Part shown: positions 3,504-33,523 of the stretch, in pieces
Numbering within the stretch: the stretch's first letter is position 1
Layout: every line of letters starts with the position of its first letter
Origin: Bipalium vagum
Lineage: Eukaryota
Reading direction: 5' to 3'
Assembly: GCA_037834085.1 (NCBI GenBank)
Contig: JBBMKC010215029.1
Coordinates: 1 to 34,683 of the forward strand
DNA: 34,683 nucleotides
Made by a program: the position numbers and the translations under genes
Notes under the pieces: generated by a model
Told to the model about the DNA's origin: nothing
Seen by the model: the letters and a program-made list of their open reading frames with translations, nothing else
The model's database searches: none

Positions 3504-3819
3504 ATGAGTTGCAACCAAGAATTTTGTTTCCCAACTCATAACCGACATACGATTGTACTATTTATTATTAGTTGGATGTTACCAATTCTAGCTACGGTTT
3601 TCTATTCTATGGTTATTATACTTCCAAACTGGGAAAAGACGATTTTCAATGTATCTCTTTTTGTGTCTAATAAAACACAATTCATCGTTTTGGAATACTT
3701 GTTGGATGACACGAATCGAACAAATGGTATCAAAATAGCACATGTAAACAATTCCGAAAAAATTTTTTGTTTGATGAATATGCGTGGAGGACTCTGGGAA
3801 ATTTGTGATGTATTATCAG
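3504..3819 (+). CDS. Claudin-like gene exon 1 (TM1 and first extracellular loop with GLWEIC)
   Basis: ATG at 3504; MSCNQEF...IVLFIISWMLPILATVFYSMVIILPNWEK...RGGLWEICDVLS; donor CAG|GTAAAT at 3819/3820, phase 1. Confidence 0.92.
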
Positions 3820-6800: not shown

Positions 6801-9800
6801 CATTCAGTTAGACGGTTATATGTGAAGAAGAGAATAAAACTCGATCAGACAAAAATCGTAATAGGCCCAGATGCATAACTGAAAATGACGATTTAATCAT
6901 AGGTATAGCAATAAATTCAACTCAGACCGATCGGTATCTTCCTGAAACATTCATTGTTAGTCTCAAGACAATTTTAACAAAATCAAAATTAAGGTGAATT
7001 ATATATTAATATCTTAGAAATAGAACTTGTTAAACGATGAATCAAATAAAAATTTTTATTGATTTCGCATATTTCATCATTTTCAATCGATGATTTTCCA
7101 GATTTCAAAAGATCACAAACATTCCACGTGTCTTTGATTTCTTCCTCGCTATAGGTATTTTTCAATTCCAAATGCTGTAAATGCCGTTTGAATAATGTCA
7201 TTTTAGCTATCAGTAAAACAACTTGCAATCATCCTTCAATGGAGAACATTATTAAATTTTGAGTTTAGTGTAATTACATTCGATACCATCAAATTATCAC
7301 AAAAATTAAAAACTTACATTATATTTCGGAAAATCTGTTTCTTAGAAAAATGCTAATTGAATATAATTATATATGATATAATATATGAATATAATTATAA
7401 CTATAATTATATATATATATCGGATACTTACATTTTATTACACATTCTATATGTATTATAAAATAGAAAAAATAGTAAAATAATCACTTCATTCTTTTTG
7501 TGTATAATGTTTTTTTTAATAATTTTTTTAAAATAATTATTAAGAATTTGAAATACCAGTGAATAAATTTTTATATTTCATCTAATGTAATGTAATTGTA
7601 AATTGAGAAGTGAATTTATTGTCTCTTTATGCATTGTAATTATTGTTAAGTGGTAATTTAGGATATGGGTGAGCCACATGGCTTTATTAAGAAGTTAGCT
7701 TCTTCCATATAGGTTAGGAAAATCTCAACAAATCATATTCAATAAACCGTTATTAAGAATATCCACATATATAGAAATATAAAATAACTGTCTTATGATT
7801 ATTTGTAATAATAAATTGGATAATTAACTTTGAAATTTCAAATTTGGAAATCAGTGTGTTTCAAATTACGAGATCACATTTTTTGAATAAACATTATTAT
7901 TATTATTATTATTATTTATTTTATGAAATTGCTGGATGTGTTTTAAATGATATAATAATAATAAAATAATAATAAATAATATAATTATAAAAATATAATT
8001 CTTTTCTAAAAATTGAATTAAAATTTTTGACATTTTTATTTCAGATAAATCAAGATCTAATTCTTTCTGCAATCAATATGACAAAATTAAGGACAGCAAA
8101 AGATGCTTCAACTATCTGTACAGATCCCGAGACTTTAGCTCTGAGACTTACGCATATGAAAGCAAAAACCTCTACTTTTTGAGTAATTTATTGAAGCTTT
8201 TTATTTATACCATAATTTAATCATTTACTAAAATCAGAAAACAATATTCTCAATAAATCAATGATTTCATAATGATAATAATTTTATCAATATTTAATAA
8301 TTGATCAGGATCAGATGAGGCAGTGTTTGAAATTTTGGGAGATTACTTTTTAAGATTTTATACAAGAAATAAAATAAATTTTTGTCTTAATAATGGTGAA
8401 AACTTTTCAATTAAATTAATATTTCTTATAATTAACCCAGAATAGTACAAAGAGAATAAAGTTTAAGAAAATAGCAGGTTAAGTGGTTTCTAAATCAATT
8501 TAATTATTTTTCAATATAAATTTTTCGATTTCGCGATGATATTCGCCATTGATATTTTATATGAAATTAAATCATTTTCGAGCAAACTCTTATAAAAAAA
8601 TTATAGTAATGTTTCATTTGAAACCCGTTTTATCAAATGACCATTCACTGATGGTTTTAGATATATCAGCTTAGACAGATAATAGAGATTCTGAGAAAAC
8701 ACTGGAAATGTGAAAATAGAAAAAATAGGCTAAAACATATTCTTCAAGATTTTTCAAGAGAATTGTGAATGTGCTACAGAATTTTTATTACCTTTGATTA
8801 TTTGAAGAGATAAAAAATAAGATTGTTATGAAAACCAAAAATTCTGTTGTATTTCATTGATTTTTGAAATAGAGAATCATTTTATGGAATGCATTATAAT
8901 TAAGAAAGAAAAATAGAAAAAATTGTTATTGGAAATCCAATACTAAAGAAATCTCGCAATACATCCCGAAGCCAAAATTAAAATAAAATAATTATTTTTT
9001 CTTTATATACAATAATATTGCAATTGATGTAATGGACACTGGTTTATTTTTATAATAGTATATTTATTTTTTAATATAATATTAATTTTATATTTTATGC
9101 AATATTTATTTAGACAATAATATAGTCATAAAGAAAGATCATAAATATTTTATTACCTTTTGGTATTATTTTTTTCTAAAACTTTACTGATGATAGTTAT
9201 TATTATATTATTATATACGTAATTCTTATTGATTTTATTACTTAAGTCAAAAATAATGATTTTAAAGCACTATAAGTTAGATTCCCAATTTTCACTGGAC
9301 CCTTTGAAAAATTATGCTATGAATCTAGACTCACAAAGAGTAATCAATTGATGCTTCTTGCGCTTCCGACATTTAACAATAAACTCTTTCAACGTTTTCT
9401 GGGAATTTCAGTAATTTTCTAAAATTTTGAGGTCTTCAGGGCTTTCTAATAATTTTTAAAATATTCTTCTGGCTTCTCCAAAACTTTGAATTTTTTTTTG
9501 ATTCTCAAACTCCCATTATTTTTCTACCAAACAAAAGAAAAGTAATTTGCCTTTCATAGATGTATAGATAGGACGACGACGACAGAAAATCTCTACTTCA
9601 CAGAAGAGACAAAAAATAATAAAAAATATATTTTCCAGATTCTAATAGAGGTCTGACGTTATCTCAACAGCAAGATAGCATTATTTTAGGAAATTAATTA
9701 TTTATTATTAAAATAGAATCTTCTTTATTACAGTACTATTAATAAAAGTACTTTTATAATAATAATAATAATAATTATTATTATTATTAAGTTGTAAAGA

Positions 9801-12800
9801 AATAAGTTCCAGTTTTAACATTTATCTTCAAATGAACAAATCACAGTTTAAACAAAATAGAAACCATTACAACAATGTACACATTTCTCTCAACAAGCCT
9901 ATTTATCCTGATTTGATAAAAATCTGGATTACTAGATGTTACAAATTCTTCAAAGGCTTTAATAACAGCATCATCATCGGGGAAGATTCTCTTGCTGAAG
10001 AACTTGTCCAAATGTTTGAAAAATAATAATCAGTAGATGAGAGGCCTGCTGAGCAGGCTTGAAGAGTGGAGAATTTCAATATTAAGTAGGTTCAATTTTT
10101 GTATGGTATATTTCGTGACATGTGGTCTGGCGTTATCTTGGGGAAGTTTTGGGCCTTTTCTATTAACCAAGGCAGAGTAGATGTACTTCAGTTTTTGATT
10201 CATTTCTTTGATTTTCTCACAATACTTTTGTCTGTAATTGTTTGACCACATCTCAAGAATTTATAATGGATCAAATCAGTGAAACACCACCAAACAATCA
10301 ACTAAGCCTCCTGTTGGTGCAACTTAGATTTCATGTCTAAGCACTGCTGAGAATGTTGGCTGTTGTCGTACAGGGCCCATTTCTCATCAAATGCCACAAT
10401 GCGATCAAGGAAAGGTTCCTTTTTGTTGCGCAAAAGAAGTGCTCTCGACATATCAAAACGACATAGTTTTTGCTTTTTTTATCAACTCGTGACTTTCCTA
10501 TTTCTCGCAAATGGTTGGAAACAGTCATGGCTGAAACATCTAGCGCACATCTAAACTCTGGAATAGTTGTACGCTGATCACTCTCAACCAGTGTCTTCAA
10601 ATCGTCATTGGTGTTAGAAGATTTTTGTCTTCGACCATCTTTATCTTGAATATCATCATCTCCATTTATAAATCTCTGAAATCAGCATTGAGCGATATGT
10701 TCACAAGTGGTATCATCTCCAAATATTCGGTTCAGATTTCGAGGGTTTTGTGCAGTATTACCACCAATATTGTATTCATAAAGGAACACTGGTTTAATCT
10801 GAATATCGTTTTTTTCTTTATTAAAATTTTTTGTTGACTTACCGTTTTAAAAGATTTTGCCTTAAGATATAAGGAAATATATGTTAATAAAAAAATGAAT
10901 TAAACAATTCATAATGCAAAAATGAAGTCATAAAAACAGAAATTAATTTCTTTACAATCTAATAATAATATATTATTCCTTCAGACCCCGAGCGGTCTCT
11001 TCGTTTTGTGCCTTTGGCAAACCAAGAAATATTAATTTCAAATGAAGAATATAAATGTTAGATTGAAAAAATAAATTTGTGTATTTAATAATAATAAAAA
11101 TCAATTTACATATCATGGAGTAATATTGATATATAATAATATTGAATAATAAGTTCATATTTTAACAAAAATTTTAACAATTCTAAAATTAAAAGTAATA
11201 ATATTTTTATGATTTTTGTTTACGAAAATATTATTGTCTAAAAAATATTTCATAAAATATAAAATTAATATTCTAATAAAAAAAAATAATAAAAAATCAT
11301 TAATCATAAATCAGTTCAATAATATTGAATTATCAGTTTAAGCAAAAAATTTAAGCAAAAATTAAAAAAATTTTCTTGGAATATTTTAGTGATCATTTAA
11401 AAATAATATGTACTATTACAGTTTAGAATATCTTATACGTTCATATTTTCGTCTTATTAAGAAATATTTCAAAATTTAATGAACATTTGGTTTGAGGTTT
11501 ATTCAAAAGTTGATTTTCAGAGTTATGTTAGGAAGCCAGTATACAAATCATCAACAAATAAAAATAAAACCCTTTAATTTGTTAAAGCCATAAACTTAAT
11601 TTGTATTTAATTATGAGCAGTCAAATCTCGTTCGATATGATTTTTAAATAAGAACATTTTTATTAACAGTGATCAAATAAGCAGAATTATAACAGAAATC
11701 CTGCTATTTGAAAATTGAGTAGTTTGACTAAAATCTCAAGCATAAAATCTATTTTTTCTTATTTTAATTTTGTAAAATGGATGTCCATTACATTATTGTG
11801 AAGTAAAATGCACTTTAAGATAAAGAAAGTTATTGACGATTTCAGCAAATTAAATTAAGAACCACAAAGAATTGCTCAAATCATTAAAATATACTTAAAT
11901 TCACGATTATAAACAAAAGCCGTCTCTTTTCCATCAATGGAAGAAATTGCCAAAATAAAACTGAGTAAAAATATAATTTTCGTTTATACATATTACAGAC
12001 TTTTACAGAAATTGATTTAACAAAACAACAGTGAGCATAGTTGAATAAACAGCCAAACTTTAGTAAATCTATCAATAGTCAGAAAATCTCATATTTGGGT
12101 ACAGAGAAGAACCTGCTTGTTGTTTCTTACTAGAATAGTGATTATTCTCAGTTTTACTACAAAATTGAAATCTAGAGAAATATAATTGGTTTGCGAGAAT
12201 TGATTGTGGAAAAGAATACAGCCACCAACAAAGTACAATCATTTATTCCTTTAATTTCATAAATCGATGTTGGTTTTGTTCTGTGAATTTTTAAAATATA
12301 AATATCAGCTCCACTTTCATGACTTTTGATTTTCAAAATATTGTTTATTAAATAATGATAAATAACAGACGACAACAATCACAAGTACGACCCTCTTGAC
12401 AAATAAAGTATTGAAAAGAAATTAATGTCGTGTCTGTAGACATTTTACTTAATTATGATTTTTCTATACTTAATAAATTCCTTGTTAAATAACCAATAAA
12501 GATATTTCAGATTTCACAAAAAAGTAAAATGAGGGTTACATTAAAATTTGTTTCCAACATTGTAAATATTAAGTGTCTTTATTGCTTTCTAATCATTTTA
12601 TATTGGTTCATCATATTTAGGAATTGTTTATGTAAATTAAATATTTCACGAGGTGCAAGTTTACTTAATTTTGCAATTATGTTCTTAGCCGTCTTAAAAT
12701 CTTTCTTTAAGTTAATAAATTAAAAGTAATTCGTCTTTTTAAATCTCAAATATTTGATAGATGACTGTAAACTTAAATGTCGTTATGAATTACTGTTTAA

Positions 12801-15800
12801 GACATGTAACGAAATTAATTTTATCAAAATTAAATTATAAAAATAAAAATTTTTAAAAAGACAAATAAATTTACTTTTTTATATTTAATCCAATAAAAGA
12901 GAGGAGTAAAAAAGCAATTAACAGATCGCAGTAAATTTATATTAAAAGACCAACATTTTAAAATAATGTAATATCTGTTAATCTTTAAGTTTAATAATAA
13001 TTAAGAAGCACTCAATTTCATCGTAGACAGATTGTAATTGGAAGCATGTTAATTTATCACAGAAGGTCTTTCTTGACAGGCTTATCTTCGAGAATAATAT
13101 ATCCGTTTTGAAGCCTTTTGAACCAATCTGAAGCTGTTTTATAGGCAATGACGCCTCCTTCAATATCACAAACAGTACCTGTGGTGACAGCAATAGTAAA
13201 TAACCTTTTCCAATAATGACTGATGAAACATCGAAACTTTTAAGAACTGTTATTAAAAATATTTATTTGGATAAAAGAAAATTAAACTATCAAAATTCCG
13301 GAAACTGTTTATACAACATAATTTTGACTCACTGAAAAAGTACTTTCGAGGTGGTTTTTTATGACTTCCGAGTTTTCAATAATATCATGTTATTAATATC
13401 TTTATAGGTGTTGAATGGATTGCATTTTTATTTTAATTTTTTTGCTTTTAATTTTAATTTTACCATAGTCATTTTGCTACTGGTGGTATAGGATTGAAAG
13501 ACATCGTTTCCTGGGGAGATTAAGATATCCTCTTGTCAAATGTTTGTGTTCAGTTTAACATTAATTACTTAAGAATTTTTTATTTTACTGCAGTTTAGAA
13601 ATTCTGCACATAATCATAAATACCAAATAGATAGTTAACTATTTAGTTCAACTGCGTCGAATAGTTGGAATAAATTTTAATTCCGTTATAATAATTTGAG
13701 ACCAATAGTTTAAGATAAGCGAATGTCAAATAAAATTCAATTAAATTTCTTAAAAATGGAAACTAATTAAAAGTTTAACAAATCAAATAAAGATCAAATC
13801 GGGTTATTTTTATAACTATTCTAAGCAAGGTTTCGAATTCAGAATGATCAGTAAAATGTATTAAAATCTAAAAAATATATTTAAGCACAAGAAATATTTA
13901 TATTTTTTTTAGAAATGCAAAACAATGTTATCGCATGCGCTATAATGGTATTGATCTGTAGTCTTTTCGCATTCGGACTGGCTTTAGCAAGCATTATATG
14001 GCAGTTGGTTCTTTGTGGAATGGTCGCTTCTGTATTGTTTGCCATGTCCGGTATATAATAATTGGATCAATTGAAATTTTATTTTGGAATTATTTTAATT
14101 GAATAACTTTATTTATTTTTGTTATATATGATGAAACTGTCAGAGAATAATAATATAATGGGACCGGGAGAAAACAGCATTTTCATAAAGTATTTTTATT
14201 TTGTGTAAAATATTTTTATGCCATTAAATATTTCTCATTTATAAAACCACAATTTCATGATATCTTGCTTGAATTCACTAATGTGAAGGGCAAATATCAA
14301 CGTGAGAATCTTACCCTTATTCTTGAAAATACTAGTTCTTATTTAACAAAATTTAGAAATTCTTTCTTGGAGCAGAATGTAATTAACCCTCCTAAGATAA
14401 GCCTGTTGGACAGCTTCATATTCCGAAATGTTGAGTCTAAGAGAAAAATAAAAACGTTCAAGTTCGTGCACGAAATTAAATGACCTAGGAGAACAGACAA
14501 CATAAAGGCTGACTCGTTAATTAAAGCAATTGAAAGACGATCTGAACAGCATTTTTTGTGTCACAGTGAATATTGGTCATTTAATAATGTACGATTTCTG
14601 GAATAAATGTTTTTAAAATGATGTTTTAATGGGTAGCTCTATATAAGAAATTATTTAATTAATAAAAACTTAAGTAATAAAGAAAATTTTGGTCTCTGTA
14701 GAAATAAAATGTTACATAAATTTAAATGATTATCTTTATAAAATTCTTTTCGTGTTGCAAACATTCGAAATCTTAATATTTAATGGAAAATAAAATGATC
14801 AGTTTTCACAATTTTTTGAACTAATCCTAAGCCGAATAATTAATTAATTGGTTTTTGCAAATTAGGAACAAAATCTTAGCAACTGTATGTACTTTATTTT
14901 TTATATTATTTGAAGAAGTAATTAAAATTAATTATTTTTTTTGTTAAATTTTTATTTTAGTTACACAAATTTATTTAAAAAAATAAAAATGGATTATAAA
15001 TTAACATTTTGGAAAATTCTTAATTATGATTTGTTTAGAAACTTTAAAAGATTTTTAAAATTAATTTAATGAGTTACAAATATTTTAATTTTAAAGGTTT
15101 TTAAATAATTACAGTTATAAAACATTTAAACAAAAGATAAATTAACTTAGAAATTTCAAATTCTCTTAAATCTCAAACGAATTTCCAGACATATTCCAGT
15201 AATGATAAAAAGAAGTGACTGAGTGTTTTTATTGATTATGAATTTTTGCAACAATTTAGCAAATATAATATTCTGTACACAAAAGTTGCATCAGAATTCT
15301 TAAGACACAGTTCAAATTTTAACAGCGAAGAGAATTCATAAGTAACTGACAATAACAAGGGATGATAATGGTAATTCATTAGTTTGAGATGAAAAAATGG
15401 TATGAAGTATCTTTCTATTTGTAATATGGGAAAATTTTTCCTTTCACTATTTAAGTGACCAATAGTATATAATATAAAAAATTTCTTTCCCATTAGAATT
15501 TACTTTGTATGGAAAAATTGAATTTTGGTTGAAAATTTTTATCAAGTTATTAATATATGATTTGTTCCAATTTAAAATATTTATAATAATCACTTAAAAA
15601 TGATATTGATTTAAAGTTTTACTTTAAATTAAAACAAAGTTAAAGAGATGGTAAAAGAGGGTAAAATGAGTTAATACTCGATATTTTATATGAATAATTA
15701 ATAATATGAACTTATCTAAATAAATTCCACAATGGTGTTGAAAAGGGTAACTGCTAGAAAATATAAGAAGCTAGAGAAATAATTTTATTCGACAAGAGGT

Positions 15801-18800
15801 AACTAATCTTATAGTGACATTAAGAAACCTTAATATTTTGGATGCTGAGCAATTTATGGATTTTAATGCAAGATTTTAAAAAAATAAAGTAATTTTTGGA
15901 TAAAAGTATTTAGATTGTAAAAATTCAAATATTTAATAGGTTATTTATATAATGGTTATTTAATATTATAAAATGTAATAAGTCTAAAATATAATAAGAA
16001 TTATAAAGATGAAAATAATTTTTTTTTCGTACAAAAAATTGTTTTATATTAAAGAAATTATATAGTAAAATACATTTCTATTAGATTAAAAAAATAATTA
16101 TCACGCTTTATTATGTATTTTTAATAGTGTTGGGTTCGCCAAAGACACGGCCACTAATAATAATAATAATAAAATTAATTAAAAAGAATAATAATAGTAA
16201 TTAATTAATTATTATTAATAATAATAATTTAAAACTTATAAAAATAACATTTTTTTTCGCCGTCGAGATAATAATTAATAACTTATAATAAAGACTGTAA
16301 TTCTTATGACAAACAAAATCTATTGATTCTGAAAATCCTTCTGACAATAAAATAATACTCTACTATTTCCTTCTTCTGAAAATAAAGATACGCTAAGGAA
16401 AATTACCACTCGATTGATTTCATTGCCTTTTTATATTTGCCAGTCCACTACTCAGTCATATGCCAATATTCTTATCCGGGAACATTAATTCCCTTCTTAA
16501 TACAATATTTATAAAATCGTTTCCTAATCGCAAACAATATCTTGAATACCAACTGTCAAGATCAAAATCCAAAAACATAATTTTAATATTAAATATTTAG
16601 TAATTATTATTAGAAATTTTTGATTATTATTTGTAATTTATAATTATAACAATTATTTCTCATGATACCCTATTGTGGTCTTTAAACTTAAATTTTTTAG
16701 TTGAATACTGGATGNNNNNNNNNNNNNNNNNNNNNNNNNNNNNNNNNNNNNNNNNNNNNNNNNNNNNNNNNNNNNNNNNNNNNNNNNNNNNNNNNNNNNN
16801 NNNNNNNNNNNNNNNNNNNNNNNNNNNNNNNNNNNNNNNNNNNNAAGGAAAGCCGTATTTTTAATAACAAACTTAATTACCATATGAAATAATAAATTTC
16901 TTATTATCTTAATATGTAATCTGGATTTTGAATATGATTTCTCTATTATAACGATTTTCTTATTTAACTCTAATCCAATGCAATAATTTTCTTAATATAT
17001 TTGAAAACAATAGGACTTTAAAAATCAATATTAGAAAAATCTTTCTTTTCTTATTCCTGTCTAAATTAAATTAACGGGATATCTATAATTAATTATTTTC
17101 TCAAATAATGACCTAGACAAAATATAATTCATTTATAAAATTTTAAAAAAGTTATCGCATATTATAAAATATATATTTTATTATGTGACACTCATTTATA
17201 CAAAAAATTATTATGTAATTTCATTTTCAAATGTCATTATATAAAAATTATACTTGTTGCGAATTTAATACATTATATTAACCAAGCCCATTAATGGTCT
17301 GACTCAAAAATCTTTTGTTTGTGTTCGATATGTACTAACACCTTAAAAAAATAATATATAAAAAGGTTTTTTTAATCACAACACAATTTATAACAAAGTT
17401 TTCACAATATACTTGTTTCAAATTTAAGAAACCGAAGAATGTAATAAAAATATTTTCTAATATAATCAATTATTCGTGTAATTAATTGGTTTTTCTCGCT
17501 TTAAAAATATTTTTTCTTTTATAAACAATTTTGGTAAATCGATATTAATGCACGTCTTTTGTCAAGGTTAATTAAGAATTTTTTAATTTAAGAATTTATT
17601 ATTTCTTATGTTATACAATTTTTTTTAGAATCTAGACTTACAAATTGATTTCTTTAGTTAGTGGAGCCTTTTATGGGAGCACAGCGACCTTAATAGTGAT
17701 AACTTTCGTTAAATTTAAATAATATATGAAGGTTTAGCATAAGTTCATATCGCTGATGTATATGTGGAATTTAAGTAATAATAATAATAATATAACATGT
17801 AAAAATTTTTATTTGGTTCACTTAGCCAATATTGATTATATTTATAGCATTAATTTGATAATATTAATAGTTTAAGTTTATCAATTCATTTACAGAAACT
17901 ATAATAGAAGTAGATAAAATACATATAAGCCACAGTATGATGTTTTTGTTTAATCTGAGCAAAACATCGGCCGAAGCAACTCGGATCATTTGCAATACAT
18001 ACGGTGATAGAGCAGTAGCCGATAGCTCATGTTGTCAATGGTACGACGCTTCAAAAGATGTGATTTTGATTTGAAAGATAAGGAACACATTGGGCGGTCA
18101 CATGACATAAGTTCGGATGACTTGGAAGCACTTTTAAAGGAGGATTCTACTCAATCGACAGTAGAGTTGGCAAGAAGGTTACATATTAAGCAGAGTACCA
18201 TAATTCAACGGTTGCATCATTTTGGAAAGATTCATAAAGAAGGAAAATGAGTTCCCCATGATTTATCGAAGAAGAATATTATCAGCCAACCAATTGAATC
18301 AATTGAGAAATATTAAGAGAAGAGAAATTCTTTATATGTCGCTCCTTCAGATTTTCATGCAGCACAGTCTTCCGGATAGGCGATTCGGGAATTTTGAAGA
18401 GGTACGATAATTCATAAACGAATGAAGCAATTAAATTAAAAAAAGACTTTTTTCCATCTTTCACCTAAAAGATAAGAAAAAGTTGTTAATAATGTCTGAA
18501 AATATTTTGATTGAATGTACTGTGTTATTTGTATTAGGTGTACAATTAAGTTTTAAAGCGTTTTTATTTAACGTTTTTCTTCAATGTAATATTAAATAAT
18601 AAGGATTTTTTTGCAAATTTATTTTTTAAGTCATTTAATTTTTTTGTTTTAATAATCTAATTTTAATATTTATTTGAACGCAATGTTTTAGAAATGGAAA
18701 ATATAAATGACCGAATGTTTATTCGCCATTGCATTCGACATTATTTTAATCAGGAAAAATCCGCTGCAGAAGCGTATGCATAGATCTTTTCCGTACTTGT

Positions 18801-21800
18801 AGATGATGATGTTTTTTAAACCTGTGAATTTTGGTTTCCCAAATTTCGGACAAGAATTTTGACCGACCAGAAACAAATCGGGACCCATTTAAAGGTCAAA
18901 TCTGCCGTTCTTCAACTATCTAGATACAGATTCATCGCAAACGCTAAAGAAACTCCACTAAAAAGCTTGGACATCCCAACAAAAGATTTCATATCAATTG
19001 AGTGCCATAGGAAAAACTGAAAAATATGGAAAGTGGATATCGCATTATTTGAGTAAAAAAAATAAAGATGCTCGTATCTTGGTGTTCTCCAACCTCTTTA
19101 ATAAACCGCGAAAAAAGTCTTTCTTGTGAAAAATAGTCACTTGTGATGAGAAATAGATCTATGAAAATCCTAAAAGAATAAAAAATTGGATAAAATTGAA
19201 CACAATAGATAGATAGATAGAACACAAAAACATCCGATTCACTCAAAAAGGGTATAATGTATATTTGGTGGGATATCAATGGCGTGCTGTATCTTGAACT
19301 TCTCCAACCGGGAGAAACGTTTTGTGGTGAGCACTATAAACATCTGTTGACTCGATTGAATGCAGAAATCGATGTAAAACGTCTATTCAAAGGCAAAGGC
19401 CAATGTCCAGTAAAATTGCTTCATGATAACACTAGGCCTCACATTGCAAGATGGGTCAAGAATATTTTAGTAACATTTGGTTGGAAAGTTTCGGAACACC
19501 TGGCGATGCCTGATATCACTCCATCGGACTCCCATCTCTTTCGCTCAATGTAAAATTCTTTGATTGATATGCACTTCAAGACCTTTAAGGGCATCCGAAA
19601 ATGGGTTGATAATTTCATCAAATCAAAAATCGAAAACTTTTTAAATGCCAGAATTCATCCTTTGTTTGAAAGATAGCTTAAGGTGATAGACTATAATGTT
19701 GAATATTTTGATGACTAATTGTACCTTGTTTATTTTTATAATCAAGGTTATATTTTTAAAAATCGCTTTAAAACTTATTTCTATATGAAAACAATTTAAT
19801 TTATTAATTTAACTAAAAATTTTAACTCATTTCTTAAAAAGCCGAAATCATACTAATACACCTAATACCATATAGTTGCAACAGCAAAGCTAAAACTTAA
19901 TATTACTTTGAGATTAAATTAATTATTTAAAACAAAAACAACATGCTGCTGCTATTTCGAATGAGATCTAAAATTTTTAATGTTTTTAATAACTTTGTTT
20001 TACAAAGTATTTTTTTATACAAATATCATAATTTTTTTATTTTATACTTCTATTAATAATTAAAAAGGGAAACGAGGCTTATTTCTTTTATCTTATTATA
20101 AAATAAAATATTCATTGTTTTTACAATATAAAGTAATTTTTTAAGCCTTCATAATCAAAAATATACACAAGCTTATGGTTAAAAATGTTTTATTTTCTTG
20201 TGGGATTGGTTTAAGTTTATCCAGAAGTGTAGTTTCACATCTTATTTGTTGATCTGATTTGATAGATTCTTCTCACTGGAGAAATTCTTAGATTCATATA
20301 TCAAAATCTCTCAGAAAATATGATTATTAATTCATCATTAATTAAATTAAATTATCAAATCACGTTTATTTATATCAATAAGGTTTATATTATCGCATTC
20401 AAAGGTAACCTTTTTTATTTATAATATTATATTGCATAGGAAAGAAAAGTATGGAATTATGATTGACGGTTGTGAATTTAGAATAATTTATTCTTTACAC
20501 TATTTTCTATTAAATCTGCGACAACTTTATATGCTAAAGTAGGCTTTTGTTATTCAATAGAAAATCGGGAGTGCTCAACCTCACTATACACTTATATATA
20601 TGTTTTAAGCAGATTGATATAGAATTGAATGAACTGAAGAGAAGATTACTTAATAACGCTTTTCCAAATTGGAAAATTGAAAAAATGATGGAAGATACCG
20701 TGATTAAATATTTGAAAAATTAAGAATGCAATGTGAAGAAAGAAAAACAGAAAAGTGAATATAAGAAAATTATTAAAATTCCCTATTCAGAGGGATTCAA
20801 GATTTTTATAATTAAAATATTACAGACAAAGAGTGAAGAAGGCCTGAAAGTAATATCTGTAACTGCGAAAACGAAGAATTTTTAAAAAATCAAAACAGTG
20901 ACTCCAAAACCAATGCAGGCTTATATCGCGTATAGATTCCAATGTCATAGATGTGATCATCTATACACAAAGTCACCTAAAGACACGAATTAGTGAGCAT
21001 TCTCATAAAACTAGAAGAGGTAAAGTGTTGGGTCATACTATTAATTGCAAAGAAAGACAAGGAAAAAAATGCCAATGAAAATGAGTTTAGTATAGTAATG
21101 AACCACTTTGATAATGATGAAGAAAGAAAATATGCGAATCATTAGTAATTAAAAACTAAAACCAGAAATTAATTCACAAAATGGAGAAAGCAGGAATCAA
21201 TAGATGATTAATGTTTCCTTTAATTACTATTTTTAAAAGTTTTAGAATTAAAAAGGTTATTTTTACTTTTGTCCAATAATAATGTTAATAATTTTATTAA
21301 AATCATGATAGTGATATCATTTGAAGATAGACATTGAAGAAGAATAAAATTGACTGAAGAAGATCTAAATGAAGAGATCGAAACATGTTTCAAGATAGTA
21401 GTATAAATAAAATTTTGTATGTTCAAAAATGTTTTTTTTAATATATCTATTGGTTAGATGAATGAAGAATATAAGAAATTCTTATTAATATTTAATTATT
21501 CTTCTTATGAAAATAAATACAGGATATATTTCAGTTAATTTTGAGATTTTAATTTTTTTTAATTAAGATAGTTTTTTAACGCATAAAATACTTTTATTTA
21601 ATTGGTCGACCAACTTTGAAAATGAAAATTTTTAAAAGATTTTTTTTTATTTAATTCCAGTAATTATCAGAGTCGAGATCATAAGGTGTACATCAAGGTT
21701 TGTAAAATTTGTAAAATCATCAAAGAGGTGATTTGAATACAGTATTTTTGGCAACTTCAAAGAGATTCAATCGATATTGACCAGAAAATATGACCAGTAT

Positions 21801-23362
21801 GGACACATGGTCAGATCAAGTCTAAGTGAAGTAAATTAAGCATGTTATGAGATTAGCCTTCAGTGATAAGGAAAATATAAATACATTATAAGTCTTTAAG
21901 ATAGAGAAATTGATATACTCAGTACAAAAATAAGAATTAAGAAATTAATTATCGAAGTTTCATATTTGCTAAACCTTAACTATGGTTCTCATTTAAATGA
22001 AGATGTCGACCAGTTAGTCTATTAAATCGAAATATACTGACTTCTTCAAAAAATTATGAGAATAGCAAAAAGAAAGGTTAGAACAACTAACGATGGCAGA
22101 AGAGTCAGTCAACTGTAGTCATAGAAAATCCGATTTGTTTCAAGACGTACGGAAAGCAGTAAAGAACGATCTTAAACTGTTAAAAACATCATAGGCAACT
22201 AGTAGAAGATTCTATAAAAATTCATATTAATGGATAGTAATGAAGGCCAGATAGAAATACCAAATAAAGATATGGTGGGCAGTTTATGGAAGACAGCAGA
22301 CTGAAATAGACCAGATGAAACTAACACGTAATTATTCTGCGCAAAAATGTATTATTTTTATTTCTTTGAATCAGTTTTGAGCAGATATCATATTCATTTG
22401 TTTTTGATAATCAGTTAATAAATGCGGTATCCACTTATTTAACTTCTTAACCTTGTCAATTTCCTTTAGGTGTTGAGAAACAGTTGAAATAGATACTGAT
22501 AATTTCTTGTATAAATTTTTTACTGTTTTCTGTGAGTTTGATTCAATAATTGTGTTCAAATCATCATTGTCCACTGAGGTTTTCCGCCTACGGAAATTTT
22601 CTAAGACGGAATTTGGCAAACCACCAACGGGTAGTTGATTCTGCTACATAACCATTTCCGAAAGCCTTGTTTATATTTCTCGTTGCATCTGCCGCAGAAT
22701 TTCCAAGTTTAAATTCGTAGAGATATATTGCTCTAATTTTCTGGTTTGTTAAAATTTTTAAAACTGTGCCAAAAAATGCTTTAATTTAAAGCATTAATTT
22801 AAAAGTTTTAATTTAAATGGAGATGGCGGATGATCAAACCATGATTAGATTATAATTAAACTTAATGAATCCGATGGATGACAGTAGAAAACCATCAGAT
22901 AAATTAACTGGATATTTATGAAGAAATGTAAAAGACAGTTGCAGATGTATAGGATCTTATTGATGAACCGAGTGAGATAAGTAATTATACTTTCCTAGAA
23001 TACTTAGTCAAATGACAAGAGGTAAAGAAAATATTTTAGTTATTAATTTTTTTTGATATTATAAAGGTTACAAAGAATAAGAAAATTGGGTGGAGAATCC
23101 TATCTGTAAATATGAATTCTTTTGACGATGAACATAAACAATGCAGAGGAATATTACTGACAAGAAAAGAGCAGTAAAGGAGCAAAGGAAACCATTAAAA
23201 CAAAAATGTAAAGATTCAAAGAGTCTGATAGGACATAAGGAAAACGATGCTGAATACAGAGATGAATATGAACATGAAAAACTCTGATAAACTCACTTCA
23301 GGCGTAGAATGTAGTAATCAAAATCAGACTGAAAAAAAGAATCGAATATGTGGTGAAATATG

Positions 23363-23411
<49 letters not shown>

Positions 23412-25446
23412 TAATAATATCAATTTTTATGAATCTTTTTGATAGAGGCAATGCGTTAGTAATTTGGAATGCACCGGTAAAGACAAGTACAACTTAAGGG
23501 TAATATTAAATTGGATGGTAATATACTCGAATTACCAAACGAAATTTAGAGATTTTTTGATGCAGAAACATGGAAGGTGTTATATTTATTGAGCATACCA
23601 AACAAAAAAATTGTAATTATTGGAAATTTGTTTACAAAATACCAATTTCAGTATGTGAGATATGGTATATCTTAAGATAGCTGATTTAAAGAAGGTGGAA
23701 GTGGAGAAAGAAAAAGTAGTTACAATGTTAAGAAAGGCATGTAACATTTCTTAAAGATCAAAACAGTACATAAATAAATAATATCAATTGTTTTACTTAA
23801 TAAAATGAAACCCGTAGAGGCCAGGTTTGTCAGGAAATAAAGTACATTACAATGTTATGTAGCAGTGTGTGCAATCAATCATAAATGCATGTTTGTAAGT
23901 CTACAGAATATCTTAAAAACGACCGAAGTAGAAAAATGGAAATTAAAATGGCTAATTATGTCAACTCTGAACTAGATTATCTATTATTTGCTTAAACAAT
24001 CAGAATTGGTACTAACTGATTGTCTAATCAACAGAGAAGTTCTTAAAAATCGATTCGATATGATTATTATCAACTAAGATTTAGTTTCTAATGTTAATGT
24101 AGGATCAGAAAGTTTTGTAATCACTATCATACTTTTTCAATGGTTTTTGTCCTTAAAATCGAACGGGCAATCGTACATTAATCGTTGGTGACCTTGGCGA
24201 ATCCAAAATATACATATATATCGTAATTACTTTATTGTGAATTTATTTAATTCTGAACATTCACAATAGGCTAATTACTTTTTTGTCAATTGAAGTCGGA
24301 AATAAGGAGCTGGATGAAGTTTTTATCTAAGCATATTTGATTATTTATGAGAGTAATTTAAATAAAATAATGGTAATTGTGCTTTCGATTAAACTCAAGA
24401 ATTCTTTACTATATCATAAAATTCTCGTCAATTTTATAACTTTTCAAAACTCGGCATTTAGATATATAGCAGATGGTTAAATTATTGTTGGTGGTTTAAA
24501 TAGTTTTTGTTATTTAAAAAATGCTTTAACTTATTATTGGAATCCATAATTATATCCTTCTATAAAAATCGCTGAATGTAGCACAATTTAAATAAAATTA
24601 AAATATTTTAAATAATCATGTCTTTTTGCTCTACATATAGATAAAGTATTTAACTACGTATAAAGTATTTAGTCAACACTAAGACGAGCGGTGGACAATG
24701 ATTTAAAAGGGAAGTTCTACGTCATGAGAAGAAGACATTTTGTATCGGCAAAAAGCAAAGAAAATCATTTAAGTGTTTTTTAAACAAAATCAAGCATCCT
24801 GATCATCCAAACAGGTTAGGGTTCTTTTCTGATGAAAAAATTTTTACTCAAGATCAAAAGGTTAATAGGAGGAACGATTGATGGCTGTGCTCCAGTGCTT
24901 CTGAAGTCCCTGATGTTATGAACACCAAGTTTCCATCATCTTTAATGATATTGGGTGTTGTGAGCAACGAATGTTATGTTATGCCTCCATATTTCTTTCT
25001 AGACTTAGAATTAATAAATCTCTTTATATCGAGTGTCTGGATACATATGTGAAGCCCTGGATTGAAAAAATTTTTAAATATGATTTAAATCCTTTGGAAT
25101 ATTTCGTATGGAGCGTCGTAAAGAAGGAGATGAACAAACATCCTCATAATACCAAAGATTCATTACGGACTTCTTTAAGTTCTGTTATGATAAATATGAA
25201 AAAAAAACCATTTGATCGCGACTTGTAAGCTTTTCAGAAGCCACCTTGAAGCTGTAATTGACACTGAAGGCGATTGAATAAATAAAACTTGTGTACTTAA
25301 AACAAATAAGTTTCTAATATTGGTTAAAAATATACATTCTTTTCATTAAAAATATTACTTACCTTTAATATTAATTTTTGTCCTCAAATAGCTGGCGCAC
25401 CCTGTATATTAATTAATATCATTTAATTATACGTACGAATAAACTA

Positions 25447-25486
<40 letters not shown>

Positions 25487-28093
25487 TAAAAAAATAAATA
25501 ATAATAATGATAATAATATTAATATTAATAATATCTCTTTATTATTACGGTTATGCCAAATTCAGTTGTAAGAATTCGATATGAACGATGTATCCCGCCC
25601 CGGATGCCCATCTCACATTGATCCAAACACTATTGATTGTTTTACCGAAAGGAATCCGTCGAACATGGTTCGGGAAATCGCAAGGATACTGAGATTCGTT
25701 TCCAGACTTAATGTCTGGGTACCGCCTAAATTAATGCCGACCAATTTCTTGGTACATGTGGGATGTTTTGCCTCATCCTTCATACTCACTGGACTTGGCT
25801 CCTATCGAATATCACTTGTTTAGGACGCTGCACAATTCCTTGAATGGGAAAACATTCAATGATGATTAGTCTGTCAGACTCCCATTGACACTTTTTTGTT
25901 AATAAGCTCCAGGAGTTCTACGAATGTAGGATCATGAATTTGACCGAAAGATGGAGAAAGGTCGTATATAATAATGCTGAACATATAATTGATTAAAATT
26001 ATTTTTGTCAATAAAATATTTTGATGTTATCTTTTCATTAAAAAGTACACGAACTTTCTTGCCAACCCAATACATTGTTCCTAGTTAAATTAATATTTTG
26101 AAGATAAAATTCAGAAATTATCTTTACTTTTACTTATGTTTCATTTCAATCTATTGTCCTTTCAAAAGAAGTCCGCAAACTTAAAGATGTTATTAGCGAT
26201 TGGAAATGCAATTTTCATTTCAAAATTTAATAATTTTTTTATTAAGCATTATTTTCTGTCTTTGCGAGCGCTATTCAGAAAGAAAAAGTAAAACTGCTTC
26301 AAGTGGACGAACAGTGTCACAATTATACTCCTCTCAATATTCCTTCAGAGGTTTGTATCATCAATATTTATGACTAAAAAATTTTATAAAATTTATTACT
26401 AAGAAACTTATTTAGTAAAGCTAATATTTTAATTTAATAATTAGAATTTATTTTATTTTTTTTAAGTGTATTCTAAATTAAAGACTTCAAGTGTTAGCAT
26501 GCTTTAGGAAAACTAAAGGCTATTTCTAAATTATTTGAATAAATTAATTTCTAATTAGTTTCAAAATGTCTCTTGATCATCTAAAATAATTTATATGATA
26601 AAATCGGTTTTTCATTAACAAAATTTTACAATTTTTTTTTCTCTTACTTCTACTTCTATTACAATGGTAAAAAAAATTTAGGGTCATGATTTGTCTTCTT
26701 CCAAATTTAGATTTATATAAGTTGATTTTAAGTAAAAATTAATTAAAGAATATAATAATGCCTCTTAATGAAGTTAACACTTTTAAAATAAAAATTAACA
26801 AAATGTAGAGTTGTAACTTGTTTGTTCGGTGAACAGATAAATCATTTATGTTTATTTAAATCGATCCACTGAAATAAATTTGGTAATATAATTTTGAATT
26901 CAAATCTAATCGACCTTGCTTTAAATAAATGCTATTCACTAGAGTAATTATTCAGTTTTTACAAGCTGGTAATATTGTCGTAATATTTAGATTTAACGTG
27001 TCAACATTATGTTGTTAATCGAAAAAGTTGAAATTCAGCAGAAATCTCTCTTTTTAAACTTTGTAACATGATTTATTTAATTTATTCAAAAATTTATAAA
27101 ATTATATTTGAACCATAAACTAAATCATTAATAAATGATTCCCATGTTTGTTATTGGTGAGTCTATTTTATTTTCGTTCTATTTCTTGGCTTAGTTGTGT
27201 TTGAATTTTTTCAAGGATCTTCAAAATCTGTATTTTTACTTTTAAAATTTCATACACACATATACTTTATATTTAGCGTACTTAATTTTTAAAATAATTA
27301 AAATATTCATCAGGTCTGATTAACTTTAACCTTCAATAAAATGTTGCAAGGTGTGTAGGCTCTCTCTTTAGATAAAATCTTTATTTATCATGAATTTTAT
27401 GCATTCCAAAAAGATTCAATTTTGGGGATAATGTATAATGCAAATGTTACTATGATACATCGACACAGTAACGTGTGCTTGTGTACCCGTACCTTCTCAC
27501 TTTTAAAATGTTGTGTTCGTTTCATTCAATGAAATCTTATCCACTAAATCAAAAAACCCATGATAATACTTTATCCGCTCTCTGTGAACTGAATCAAAAC
27601 TTCCACAATAAAACTTTATAGGTAAAATACAATCACAGCTAAATATAACAAGTCACTCTATAAATCACCCCAATAATCCATAAGTTCGATAACCAAAAAT
27701 GTCAAATAATAGTCTCATCAAAAATAATGATAAAAATACAAAACTACTAAACAAAGAGAGAGATGAAAGAGGTGATCACAAACAGATGAGGTTCCGAAAA
27801 GTAGCAAGCAAATAAACGATCTCACCAAGAGCCATAAGGAGTCCCCTGGTTGCCCTCTAGGTCCTTTGCTGGTCACCTAGGGGTTCCCAAGCTCGCTGGG
27901 TCCCTTTGTTAAATTCTTTTTCGTTGTAATAACCACTTGCTAGAAGGAAAACCTGGAATATTTGAATTACCTCGCAGATTCGAATTGTTCTCCCAGATTT
28001 AAATTGTCTCTAAAAGTTTTTGGGCAAATTTATGGAAATAGCCGTCTCTTTATATTACCGTAGGGACTGAGCTACGATCACCAATTATTCTTA

Positions 28094-28139
<46 letters not shown>

Positions 28140-31100
28140 ATTATTATGAACTTATTATTAGTATTTATAATAATTATTATTATTATAACCCAACAAAATT
28201 ATAATTATTTAATATTATTTGTTTCATATTTAGAATAATATTGTAGATTTTGACATAACTATTAAATATTGTGACATTAAATTATTTTATTCTTAAATAA
28301 TTTATTTATATTAAAAAGGATATATTTCTGCCAAAACTAATCCACCAATATTTGTTTTTCAAATTCTGTGAACAAAAATAGACAAAAAGTTTTGTTTCTT
28401 TAAATGTATTCTCAATCTGTGAAATTTCAAAATGTTTTCTTTTGTATTTAATGTTCCAAAGGGCAAATATATGGAAATTGCATAACCAAAATCTTTACTA
28501 CATGTCGAAATACTTACAATGATGAATTTTTTCCACACATTAGAGGAAATAATTATAAATCCATTCAGTTTTCTACTATAATTTTTTTACTAAGGTATAA
28601 CTTAATCATTTAAGGAGATCAAAATTTGCTTATAGATTATTTGGAAAAGATTTTTGGTTTGAATGTTGAATTTTTATTAAAATTTGTCTGTTTAAAAGCC
28701 ATAGTTTTATAAATCATGCGAAAATAAGTATAAATCCAACCAACCAATGTTTAAATATTTTCAGCTTCGAAATTTTATTAAATCTGGTAAATCACCTTAC
28801 ATGTGATTTAATTTTAAATGTTTTATAAATATATTGTATATAATGTCTTGAACCTAAATCGACATTTTGAGAAAATCTGGATTTGGAAAAAGGAAGAATG
28901 CAACTGAGATTTTCTGCCTGTTATTTAATAAATTATTAAAACATCACATTTTTATAGTTAATTTCAAAATATTTTCAAGTAAGTTCAAATAGAAAATGTT
29001 TATTTTTTTAATTTGAGTAAAAAAATTTATAATTATTTTTTCCACTGTATAAAATAAAATGAAGTCCTCATGCAACCTAATTAAAATGCAGTAATAAAAT
29101 AAGTCAAAGATTTACTTTAAAAAAGTGTATTAAAATATGTAAATTTACTTAATTTTACTAATTTTCCTAAATTATTTAAATTTACTGCCCAGTTACATAG
29201 TTATCTATATAAATAGATAAACAAAAATGACCCAGGGGATATCTGAACGGAAGTGTCACCAAACATGGTAAATATTATTTAAAAGAATAATTTATTAATT
29301 TTATTTAAATAAATTAAAAATTATCTAACAATTATTAAATAATATAAATATTTAAAGTTACAACAATAAAATAATATCTCTATTAACAAATGTCGTCAAT
29401 TTCAGATTATATCATGTTTCAAATTTTTATTCTTATTCTACAAGTTTATGAAACATAGGCAGGATTCATTACAAAAAGATTAGTTAATCATTATCACATT
29501 TGACTTTAAGAGAAAGACGTAGTGAAAGATGATTAGACACCAGATAAAATATTAATTGAAAGATGTATTAAAATTCCGTGGATTAATATATATTTTTTAT
29601 ATATTATTTAGAAAGTATACTATTCATGGACAGTTACTATTTTCGATTAATTTATTTTAAAAAGCTAAAAAAAAACAAAATTCATCTTTTTGCAAATTAA
29701 ATATCACAAAATAATTGATTTTCCATAATTTAGGAATATAAAAATTTATTTCCCTAAAAATTTTTTACTTTACATAGAACTCTACAATAATAACATCATT
29801 TTTTTTGATCCATTTTTTTTATTGTTTTTAATGAAATAAAAGAATTCCGGGTAGAGACATCTAAATAGTTATCGTGAATAAGAATGATAAATTATTTCAT
29901 TGTCTTAATTCCCAAGAGAAATATAACGATAATCAAAATGGAAATTATGATTAGTTTCCTCTTTAGAATAAATCATAAAATATTTCATCGTGAAAAATAA
30001 TTTTGAAATTATATAAAAGTGTTATTAAATATGTTTAAGTAAATATAAAAATATTTTCAGGGTTTAATAATAATAATATATAATATTAAAAATAATATAT
30101 GTAATAATATATTTAATAATAATAAATAAATAAATAAATCAAATTAGTAAATCAAAAAATAATAAAAATATTAATTTAAAATAATATATAATTATATAAC
30201 AATAATAAATCAAAATAAGTTTAATAATAATATTAGTAAAATACTTTTCAAAATTATAATTTTTTGCCCGATAATGACTTTTTTGTCCTAATCATGTCGA
30301 GATGGCAAAGAAAGTCGCCTGAATGAACTTTTTGTTTGGCATCTAATGCTGTCAACTTAAATTTAATTCTGCTCTAGTAAGTCGCCGTTGAATGAATGGT
30401 TTATTATGAAGAGGATTTCTATTAAGTTCAAATTTCTCAGAAAATGAAAATATTTAGATGTTACGTACAATAAATACTTCATAGAATCCACGATGAACAA
30501 TGTCTTGAAGACAAAGAGCGGTGGTTGAGACCACGAAAACAAACAGAGTGCAAGATAGAGAAATTATTAAAATTTACCTGTTAAATAGACGTCTAACAGC
30601 GAGAATAATAGCTGAAAAATATAAAGAATTTAAGGAAGTGAATTTCAGCGAATGTACCATAAAACGCAAAACCGTATTGTTTTGGCTTGTACGGTCAAGT
30701 AGCTGCAAAAAATGTTTACTAAGAAAAGTTAATAAAGCAAAAAGACTGAGATGGCCATCAAACATGAAGATTGGACATTTAACCAATGTAAAAAGAAAAG
30801 AAAAGAAAAAAAAGATGAATGGAACTTCCAGTTCTTCTCTTGTTTCTTTTTTGGTTTCTCCTCACAGAACGTTTGTTAAAAGATTTTTTGCAGAAAGATA
30901 TATCAAAATAGTTTGATGCCTACAGTAAAGTTTGTAGGTGATTCTGTTTGTGTTTGGTGATGTTTTGCAGGAGAAAATGATGTTTAATTGCAAAAATAGG
31001 AATCATGACAAAAGAGGTTTATAAGGATATTTTGAAAAAGATGGTTAGCCATCTAGGAGACGATTATTTCAAGAGAAATATATATTTATGCATGACAATG

Positions 31101-32085: not shown

Positions 32086-33523
32086 TTAGGTTGTTCAGAA
32101 AGTTTTGCACGTTTCTGTTTACATACATTTAAATTGTAAATATTTCAAAAAACTTATTTAAAGATATTTAAATATCCGATGCGTTTACTTCTTTTTTCCA
32201 ATAATGCCGAAGGATACCACGAATTACCATGTTGTCATTTTTCATTTCTTGCTTACTTATTTAATCTAAAATTATATTTTATTTAAAAGTAATCATAAAC
32301 AATGCACTCAGAGAAACAAGAGCTACAGATTGATATCAAATTTATTATAAATATATGTATTTTTAATGTTAAAATTTTTAATTAAACTTTTCATTACAAA
32401 ATGGTAGATTACTTATGGAACAGCCTAATATTATTAAATAACTATTTATATAACTATATATTGAACTCTTTGAAATATTGATCTGTTTTACTTTTAAATT
32501 AAAATTTGATTATCTTTTTTCCATTATAATGTAGGAAGTGTCGCAATTTGCGCCAAATTTATTTTTATGATTTTCAACTCTGTACAACTGCTCGAAAAGT
32601 TAATGAAGTTTGGGTCCATGGTACTGTAACTTGGTACTAGAACTTCCAAAATGGAGATTTATCCCTTAAAGATGCAGAACGAATTGGTTATGCGTCAAAA
32701 CTTGATAACAAAGATTTAAAAGCTAGTGGAAGAAAATATGATAACAGCAATATGAAAACTTGCCAAATGTCTTGATATAAGTATTGGACAAGTCATATGA
32801 AGCAAATAATTAAGACAAAGAAACTGGACATGAGTTAACCATAAAAAAATGAGATGAACTTAGAACTCATTTTGAGGAAATAAAAACGAGCCATTTCTTC
32901 ATCGTTTGATTACTAGCAAAATTTTTATAGTTGCTCTATAACAATATGAAACATTCAACACAGTGATTACGCATCTGCGAATGTCCCAAGTCCTTCTCCA
33001 AACCGAGTCAACATGAAAAAAGATAATGATTACCTGGAAAAGGGAGAAATGATAAAAACAGAGAAATACTGCATAGAAATTGATATTATGCAAGAAAAAA
33101 TGAAAAGAATGTACCCGGTATTGATCAATGAAAAGGCCCAATTCTATTGTATGACAATGTCCGTCAGAACATAGCAAATCAAACCATGGATAAGCTGAAA
33201 AACCTAAGTCACGATATTCTGTCACAACCACCGTACTCGCCCGATATCTCACCAACTGATTTCCATTTATTCAAACATTTACAAAATTATTTGAATGAAA
33301 CAAAATTTCATAACGAAGAGATGCTAAAAAGGAATTTGAACAGTTCATTGCCTCTAGGTCTACCGAATTCTACCACATATGAATGGATAATCTACCAATT
33401 CATTGGTAAACGTGTGTAAACGATAATGGTTTTTATTTTGATCAAAAAATTCTTGTTTCAACTGACTCATGCTGTTTTAAAAAGAATGTACAAAAAACGT
33501 GAGAAATTTTCCGAACAACCTAA
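32086..33523 (+). mobile_element. Defective mariner (DD34D, cecropia-like) carrying a nested TIR-ended fragment
   Basis: TIRs TTAGGTTGTTCAGAAA / TTTCCGAACAACCTAA|TA; YDNVRQN-34-D, PPYSPDISPTDFHLF. An inner piece ends TTACTTATGGAACAGCCTAATA near 32430. Confidence 0.92.

Follow-up and report, generated by a model that had tools for sequence, protein, structure and literature searches.

Our data show that positions 21350-21393 (+) of the window, the whole 34,683-nt stretch of Bipalium vagum DNA that we analyzed, hold a hammerhead ribozyme motif that belongs to a Penelope-like element (PLE) family. The element copy around it has a broken ORF, no second motif occurs in the window, the genome holds about 900 copies, and the motif decays at the neutral rate. 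We consider it very probable that this is the 3' pseudo-LTR (pLTR) hammerhead of a 5'-truncated, mutated PLE copy in a predicted intron, an inert relic that is probably transcribed with the intron and probably does not cut.

A minimal hammerhead at the end of a broken Penelope-like element

The motif reads as follows, with the type of evidence in brackets.

21350-21393 (+): minimal type I hammerhead of a PLE pLTR (sequence, descriptor, folding, covariance model)
21350-53 (+): stem I, 5' strand, TTGA (sequence)
21354-60 (+): catalytic core, CTGAAGA (sequence)
21361 (+): extra A between positions 9 and 10.1 (sequence)
21362-66 and 21375-79 (+): stem II, GATCT and AGATC (sequence)
21380-83 (+): GAAA (sequence)
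21383-88 (+): stem III palindrome, ACATGT (sequence)
21387-89 (+): GUU triplet, with the predicted cut after U21389 (sequence)
21390-93 (+): stem I, 3' strand, TCAA (sequence)

The initial annotation had stated that every core nucleotide is present at 21350-21393 (+), and this proved correct letter for letter. A hammerhead descriptor applied to both strands of the whole window returned this one site. When the window was simulated 200 times with an order-3 Markov model, the descriptor returned 0 sites; the motif is real and not a chance match. A covariance model made from the families likewise gave 21350-21393 as the only site in the window, with 70.8 bits. The next match to that model, at 13214-13245 (+), scored 18.9 bits (E 0.011) and has CTGATGA followed closely by CGAAAC; without stem II or the palindrome, it was rejected as a second hammerhead and may be a decayed motif or a chance match. 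The search with Rfam covariance models that had been proposed for this DNA found no hammerhead family in the window at E<=10, a null result that weakens only the claim of canonical Rfam membership.

Stem II is closed by G21362-C21379, equivalent to G10.1-C11.1, and folding predicts that it pairs with a probability of 0.94-0.99; for stem I the predicted pair probability is 0.07-0.16 for the motif alone and 0.00-0.02 with flanks. Single-strand folding showed no stability above background (z 0.00 to 0.43), and a stem III hairpin with a 2-nt loop is unscorable by folding. The intermolecular ACAUGU duplex between two strands has a computed energy of -4.6 kcal/mol. On every sequence feature tested the motif is of the kind termed PLE min-HHR, and these features together with family membership support the earlier description: a minimal type I hammerhead of the Penelope type, whose palindromic stem III is of the dimer type; any cleavage activity would be by analogy with published relatives only.

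The element copy that carries the motif comprises the following parts.

about 20603-21437 (+): PLE copy, 5'-truncated and broken (alignment with sister copies)
20603-21236 (+): ORF remnant, the end of the RT thumb/linker and the GIY-YIG endonuclease, interrupted by 3 premature stops and put out of frame by 3-4 deletions
21237-21349 (+): pLTR spacer from the ORF end to the hammerhead (sister-copy comparison)
21385-21437 (+): ORF N-terminus, the first 18 codons, carried in the 3' pLTR (sister-copy comparison)

The alignment of sister copies to the window covers about 20603-21437; many sisters extend farther upstream, so the window copy is 5'-truncated; at its other end it stops at 21437, without the family's roughly 35-nt tail. 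The remnant is interrupted by stops at 20721, 20883 and 21201, by the loss of 11 nt from the GIY-YIG motif region (near 20962-64), and by smaller deletions of 2, 1 and 1 nt near 21064-70, 21126 and 21150, as judged against three sister copies (the last deletion is seen against two of the three). The stops and frameshifts reported earlier for this ORF are therefore borne out. The motif had also been placed about 150 nt after the ORF end; a stop does stand there, at 21201-03, but it is premature, since the sisters read on past it through WMINVF and the family ORF ends near 21222-36, so that the motif begins ~115-130 nt past the true end.

The upstream parts of the sisters encode a reverse transcriptase (RVT_1, E 4e-06, a score slightly below the curated cut-off). 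A query with this RT yielded 234 homologs; among the 120 listed, most carry RVT_1 and several carry GIY-YIG, and 13 of these 120 match the window, the best at 20562-20966 (P0002, E 2e-19). The ORF remnant is also matched by P0003 at E 1e-15, and the aligned region is that protein's GIY-YIG domain (PF01541 at 409-490). Pfam GIY-YIG applied directly to the family's own endonuclease matched 0 of 6 sister-copy fragments, and a word search with the N-terminal PLE fragment found no homolog. By sequence, the family is an EN+ Penelope-like element with a predicted single ORF, in which a telomerase-like RT is followed by GIY-YIG.

Family copies L008, L009, L015 and L020 have inverted 5' pieces, L154 has a tandem arrangement, and the 3' ends of family copies fall into two clusters about 35 nt apart. 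The PLE anatomy in PMC8557442 and PMC11167929 matches these inverted 5' pieces, partial tandems and 3'-end clusters. The hammerhead lies 3' of the ORF in the window copy and 5' of the ORF in L091/L155 and L157-L160. Two loci show contacts with other families: at L010:1177-1500 the hammerhead-bearing end of a second Penelope family is inserted head-on at the 3' end of a copy of this family, which fits a PLE preference for the ends of other PLEs, and in L154 (G000:C202639:3000-8000) a 5' pLTR-ORF copy of the family stands immediately before an element that belongs to another family and is 65% alike.

Upstream of the window copy, 20020-20600 was examined as a possible inverted arm of the element and rejected as such, as it is single-copy DNA. 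Just before the element this single-copy DNA contains inverted arms, AGGCTTA and TAAGCCT, about 65 nt apart at 20073-20150 (+), which do not have the order of a hammerhead.

Abundance and decay of the motif in the genome

The initial annotation had suggested counting motif copies genome-wide and looking for covariation in the stems. A search with the pLTR region gave 1122 candidate places in the element's own 441-Mb genome, 40 of which were scored. The core pattern CTGANGA-N10-34-GAAACATGT matched 938 times, against 13 for a reversed control, and a pattern combining this family's GATC stem II with the core matched 147 times, against 0. The motif loci that we fetched fall into at least four families. 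We extracted 27 motifs, dropped two as chance matches without stem II, and aligned the remaining 25, with core columns that were fixed in advance by the search pattern. Helix cells are paired in 89.5% of cases in this alignment, compared with 22-49% in slid controls, and one stem II pair is compensatory (AU in 14 and UA in 10 of the 25 motifs). The covariation expected earlier is thus present in pairing and in this pair, but few independent changes stand behind the signal. Stem I is paired in 78% of cells in the same alignment and is poor in two families. The extra base is A in 28 of 36 motifs and T in the other 8, in a set for which the pattern itself required one extra base.

The combination of an intact motif with a dead ORF had been taken as meaningful. 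For a decay test we fetched 29 copies by their endonuclease end only; 22 of these reach the motif, and seven were dropped as ending before it. Compared with the majority letter, 60 of 717 motif sites (8.4%) and 318 of 3663 flank sites (8.7%) are changed in the 22 copies (Fisher p=0.83), and the two rates are also alike when compared base by base. The 11 core sites alone, which are A-rich and mostly A and G, are changed in 13 of 237 cases (5.5%), against 7.7% and 11.9% for the flanks; weak selection may act on some copies (n=22). A plausible motif is kept in 8 and a perfect one in 3 of these 22 copies, which were chosen without regard to the motif.

The window copy itself has no change in 33 motif sites and 22 changes in 370 sites elsewhere, and at its divergence the probability of finding 33 unchanged sites is 0.13. 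Its intactness needs no selection, because the motif decays at the flank rate and chance alone would leave it intact at this probability. Target size accounts for a 44-nt motif outlasting a 630-nt ORF, and the contrast between the two loses the significance given to it.

A likely start codon within the stem III palindrome

Comparison of family copies drew attention to two further features inside the motif.

21385-21387 (+): AUG in the stem III palindrome, likely ORF start codon in tandem (5' pLTR) copies (sister and homolog comparison)
21355-57 (+): in-frame UGA, part of the catalytic CUGA core, 30 nt upstream of the AUG in this family

The predicted cut falls two bases after this AUG, and the 3' strand of stem I is also coding in the ORF. 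In L091, where the motif lies 5' of the ORF, the palindrome ATG opens a frame that runs into the PLE N-terminal domain. Among 30 loci fetched with that N-terminus, eight (L155-L160, L163 and L170, representing this family and at least two related ones) start at the palindrome Met and continue into the ORF body; seven others carry a truncation or a shift, and the remaining 15 represent 3'-type ends, as in the window. In four families the ATG lies 54, 60 or 63 nt from a downstream motif that they share (seen in 12 of the 18 motifs that could be measured; six are shifted). Counted from the palindrome Met, an FLxxC motif stands at residue 63, compared with residues 52-61 in 11 of 22 full-length homologs. 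One family has an additional in-frame ATG in stem I. These comparisons suggest that the AUG in ACAUGU is likely the start codon of the element ORF; a spliced leader, as in Drosophila Penelope, may be an alternative to a start in the palindrome. Start codons in stem III may already have been described (Lunse et al. 2017), and we do not claim the placement as unpublished. Our literature search for a start codon in stem III turned up only Frangieh 2024 (PMC11167929) as directly relevant.

In an active ancestor, tandem copies would be transcribed into RNA in which each pLTR carries a hammerhead. Stem III would form in trans by pairing between the ACAUGU strands of two motifs, probably aided by the element's protein, and the RNA would be cut after GUU. 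Such a cut would separate the cap and the AUG from the ORF, because the palindrome AUG is the likely start codon. As the AUG would be masked by pairing and lost by cutting, the ribozyme could be a switch that senses the concentration of element RNA and converts mRNA into a non-translatable template, with dead intronic copies whose motif is intact, such as that of the window, supplying trans strands and damping the active element; we put this forward tentatively and regard it as unlikely. The role of the hammerhead in Penelope-like elements is still described as an open question (PMC8557442), and a likely start codon inside the dimer helix, found in 5' junction copies of three families, offers a concrete test of cleavage control over element translation.

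The predicted host intron, the rival explanations and known systems

The element lies within a predicted gene with the following structure.

3504-31940 (+): predicted five-exon host gene, claudin-like, 283 aa (splice sites, frame continuity)
3504-3819, 8045-8182, 13913-14050, 26247-26350 and 31785-31940 (+): predicted exons (GT-AG, one frame)
14051-26246 (+), 12,196 nt: predicted intron 3, holding the element and several mariner/Tc1-like remnants (splice sites, frame)

The motif is on the sense strand of predicted intron 3, 4,857 nt before the 3' splice site; as a prediction, its reported sense orientation in a 12-kb third intron of a claudin-like gene (14051-26246, same strand) holds. The predicted 283-aa product has four hydrophobic segments and a GLW-x3-C motif, with GLW at 96, C101 and C114. 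We take the gene to be putatively claudin-like from this topology and from its likeness to the W-GLW-C-C motif of claudin/PMP22 proteins; Pfam gave no claudin match for single exons or for P0001. A single database homolog of exon 1 was found (E 1.6e-07, 30% over 90 aa), and searches with exon 1 found none among longer proteins and, in its own genome, none besides itself. Contigs of one sequencing run (X1), which may be the source sample, span both insertion junctions uniquely and show no empty site. Within the intron, at 17658-17722 (+), an AG at 17656-57 precedes 22 in-frame codons for a hydrophobic segment that end in a stop, which could serve the host gene as an alternative terminal exon. 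At loci L043 and L039, motifs from other families are intact and share their strand with host-like exons nearby; sense placement is therefore not special to the window.

Other repeats are scattered through the window. Predicted intron 2 contains, at 9532-9642 (+), a short stretch that resembles another Penelope-like element's RT thumb, with weak tblastn matches (P0040, P0007, E 0.003-0.006). Many decayed transposase remnants, putatively mariner/Tc1-like by their motifs, lie at 5544-6550, 10090-10830, 18000-18260, 18690-19720, 22324-22797, 24650-25280, 25570-25990, 30500-31420 and 32550-33420, and two similar-looking repeat remnants with short minus-strand frames at 422-1000 and 16250-17000.

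The window copy would probably be transcribed along with the predicted intron. As a lone motif whose loop III has 2 nt and whose 4-bp stem I is unstable, it would probably fail to cut within the few minutes before splicing. Published min-HHR monomers did not cleave and dimers cleaved at a low level (PMC4209133), and the Anolis PLE hammerhead cleaves only with protein and has no RNA-seq ends at its cut site (PMC11167929). The descriptor, a fuzzy pattern and the covariance model all found no cis partner motif in the window. Hundreds of intact family copies make a trans partner RNA possible in principle, and intronic hammerheads are not always harmless, since a fast engineered one knocks down its gene, cutting expression up to 20-fold (PMC11856399), and in Xenopus such motifs occur in retrozymes that introns hold less often than expected, although about 43% of them are intronic (bioRxiv 10.64898/2026.07.22.740005). 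Slow intronic ribozymes had no effect on splicing (Fong 2009 as cited in PMC10919898). With no second hammerhead in the window and no cleavage of published monomers, the predicted claudin-like gene is unlikely to be affected. We find no support for the idea that the motif cleaves the intron or gives rise to small or circular RNAs, given its decay at the flank rate, the lone site, a stem I with pair probabilities of 0.00-0.16 and low published activity.

If the host had kept the copy, it could cut the nascent intron, with a trans partner or an element protein, and tune the splicing or level of the claudin-like gene in the manner of CPEB3. The sense orientation within the predicted intron and the unchanged 33 sites, against 22 of 370 changed elsewhere, fit such a role, as do the at least 147 family copies with core, palindrome and four stem II pairs as potential partners and the precedent of the CPEB3 intronic ribozyme (PMC10919898). 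Chance accounts for the intactness at P=0.13, however, the cis partner is absent, stem I hardly pairs, published activity is low even for dimers (PMC4209133), and the copy, at a divergence of just about 6% from the rest of the family, has had little time for co-option to show; we judge host use to be very improbable. Quite improbable as well is a non-cleavage role in the element lineage, such as protein binding or translation control over the start codon, in an ancestor that cut little. The AUG within stem III, the coding 3' strand of stem I and the poor stem I pairing in two families (78% of cells) speak for this account, Anolis core mutants still insert in vitro (PMC11167929), and some PLE clades thrive without canonical hammerheads (PMC8557442). 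Four families nevertheless have in common the stem II G-C closure, the compensatory pair and the full core (core columns being pattern-fixed), and the Anolis motif cleaves with protein and is rescued by C3G/G8C (PMC11167929), and these points count against a non-cleavage role.

The gene model could also be wrong at exon 4, with the element outside the transcript, for example after the alternative terminal exon at 17658-17722. All exon junctions are predictions, and the AG at 17656-57 does open an in-frame 22-codon hydrophobic exon with a stop, but exons 4 and 5 are in phase, have GT-AG sites and provide the fourth hydrophobic segment, and this error seems to us extremely improbable; the verdict of an inert relic would be unchanged even then. 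As such a relic, the window motif is of little consequence, since hundreds of such relics exist and the motif is already described. A host effect, if true, would matter more, and it is without support here.

The motif resembles the metazoan PLE min-HHR (Cervera and De la Pena 2014, PMC4209133) in its type I topology, CUGANGA core, extra base before G10.1 and G10.1-C11.1 pair, and equally in its short helix I, palindromic helix III and pLTR location. That source lists many 5'-truncated PLEs with only a 3' hammerhead (Table S1) and reports thousands of single motif copies genome-wide. The ACAUGU with a 2-nt AU loop was not found among its Fig. S3 rows as extracted, which contain similar 2-nt inserts, e.g. 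Drosophila AUAU, and we found no start-codon overlap in the part of PMC4209133 that we drew on. PAc (Poseidon_Ac) of Anolis carolinensis (PMC11167929) likewise has a pLTR hammerhead that overlaps the ORF start, a cut downstream of the AUG, and at the element's end a 30-40 nt tail, as in the family copies here. The overlap here is a variant in placement of the one published for Anolis, because in Frangieh 2024 (PMC11167929) the ORF start is in stem II and the cut comes 26 nt later, whereas here the AUG is in stem III and the cut comes 2 nt later.

Animal non-LTR retrozymes (bioRxiv 10.64898/2026.07.22.740005; PMC7229834) share the type I hammerhead, the PLE pLTR origin and the need for a dimer. 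They are non-coding tandem units with a hammerhead in each, in contrast to the window's single truncated coding element with no tandem partner; identity as a non-LTR retrozyme was rejected, as a single motif with a coding remnant upstream was found. A self-cleaving motif on the sense strand of an intron, here a predicted one, is shared with the CPEB3 HDV-like ribozyme (PMC10919898), which is active alone with a half-life of 2-3 min, and with amniote intronic hammerheads (cited in PMC6765202). Those adopted intronic ribozymes are single-copy and conserved across species, whereas the window motif is one of hundreds of decaying transposon copies.
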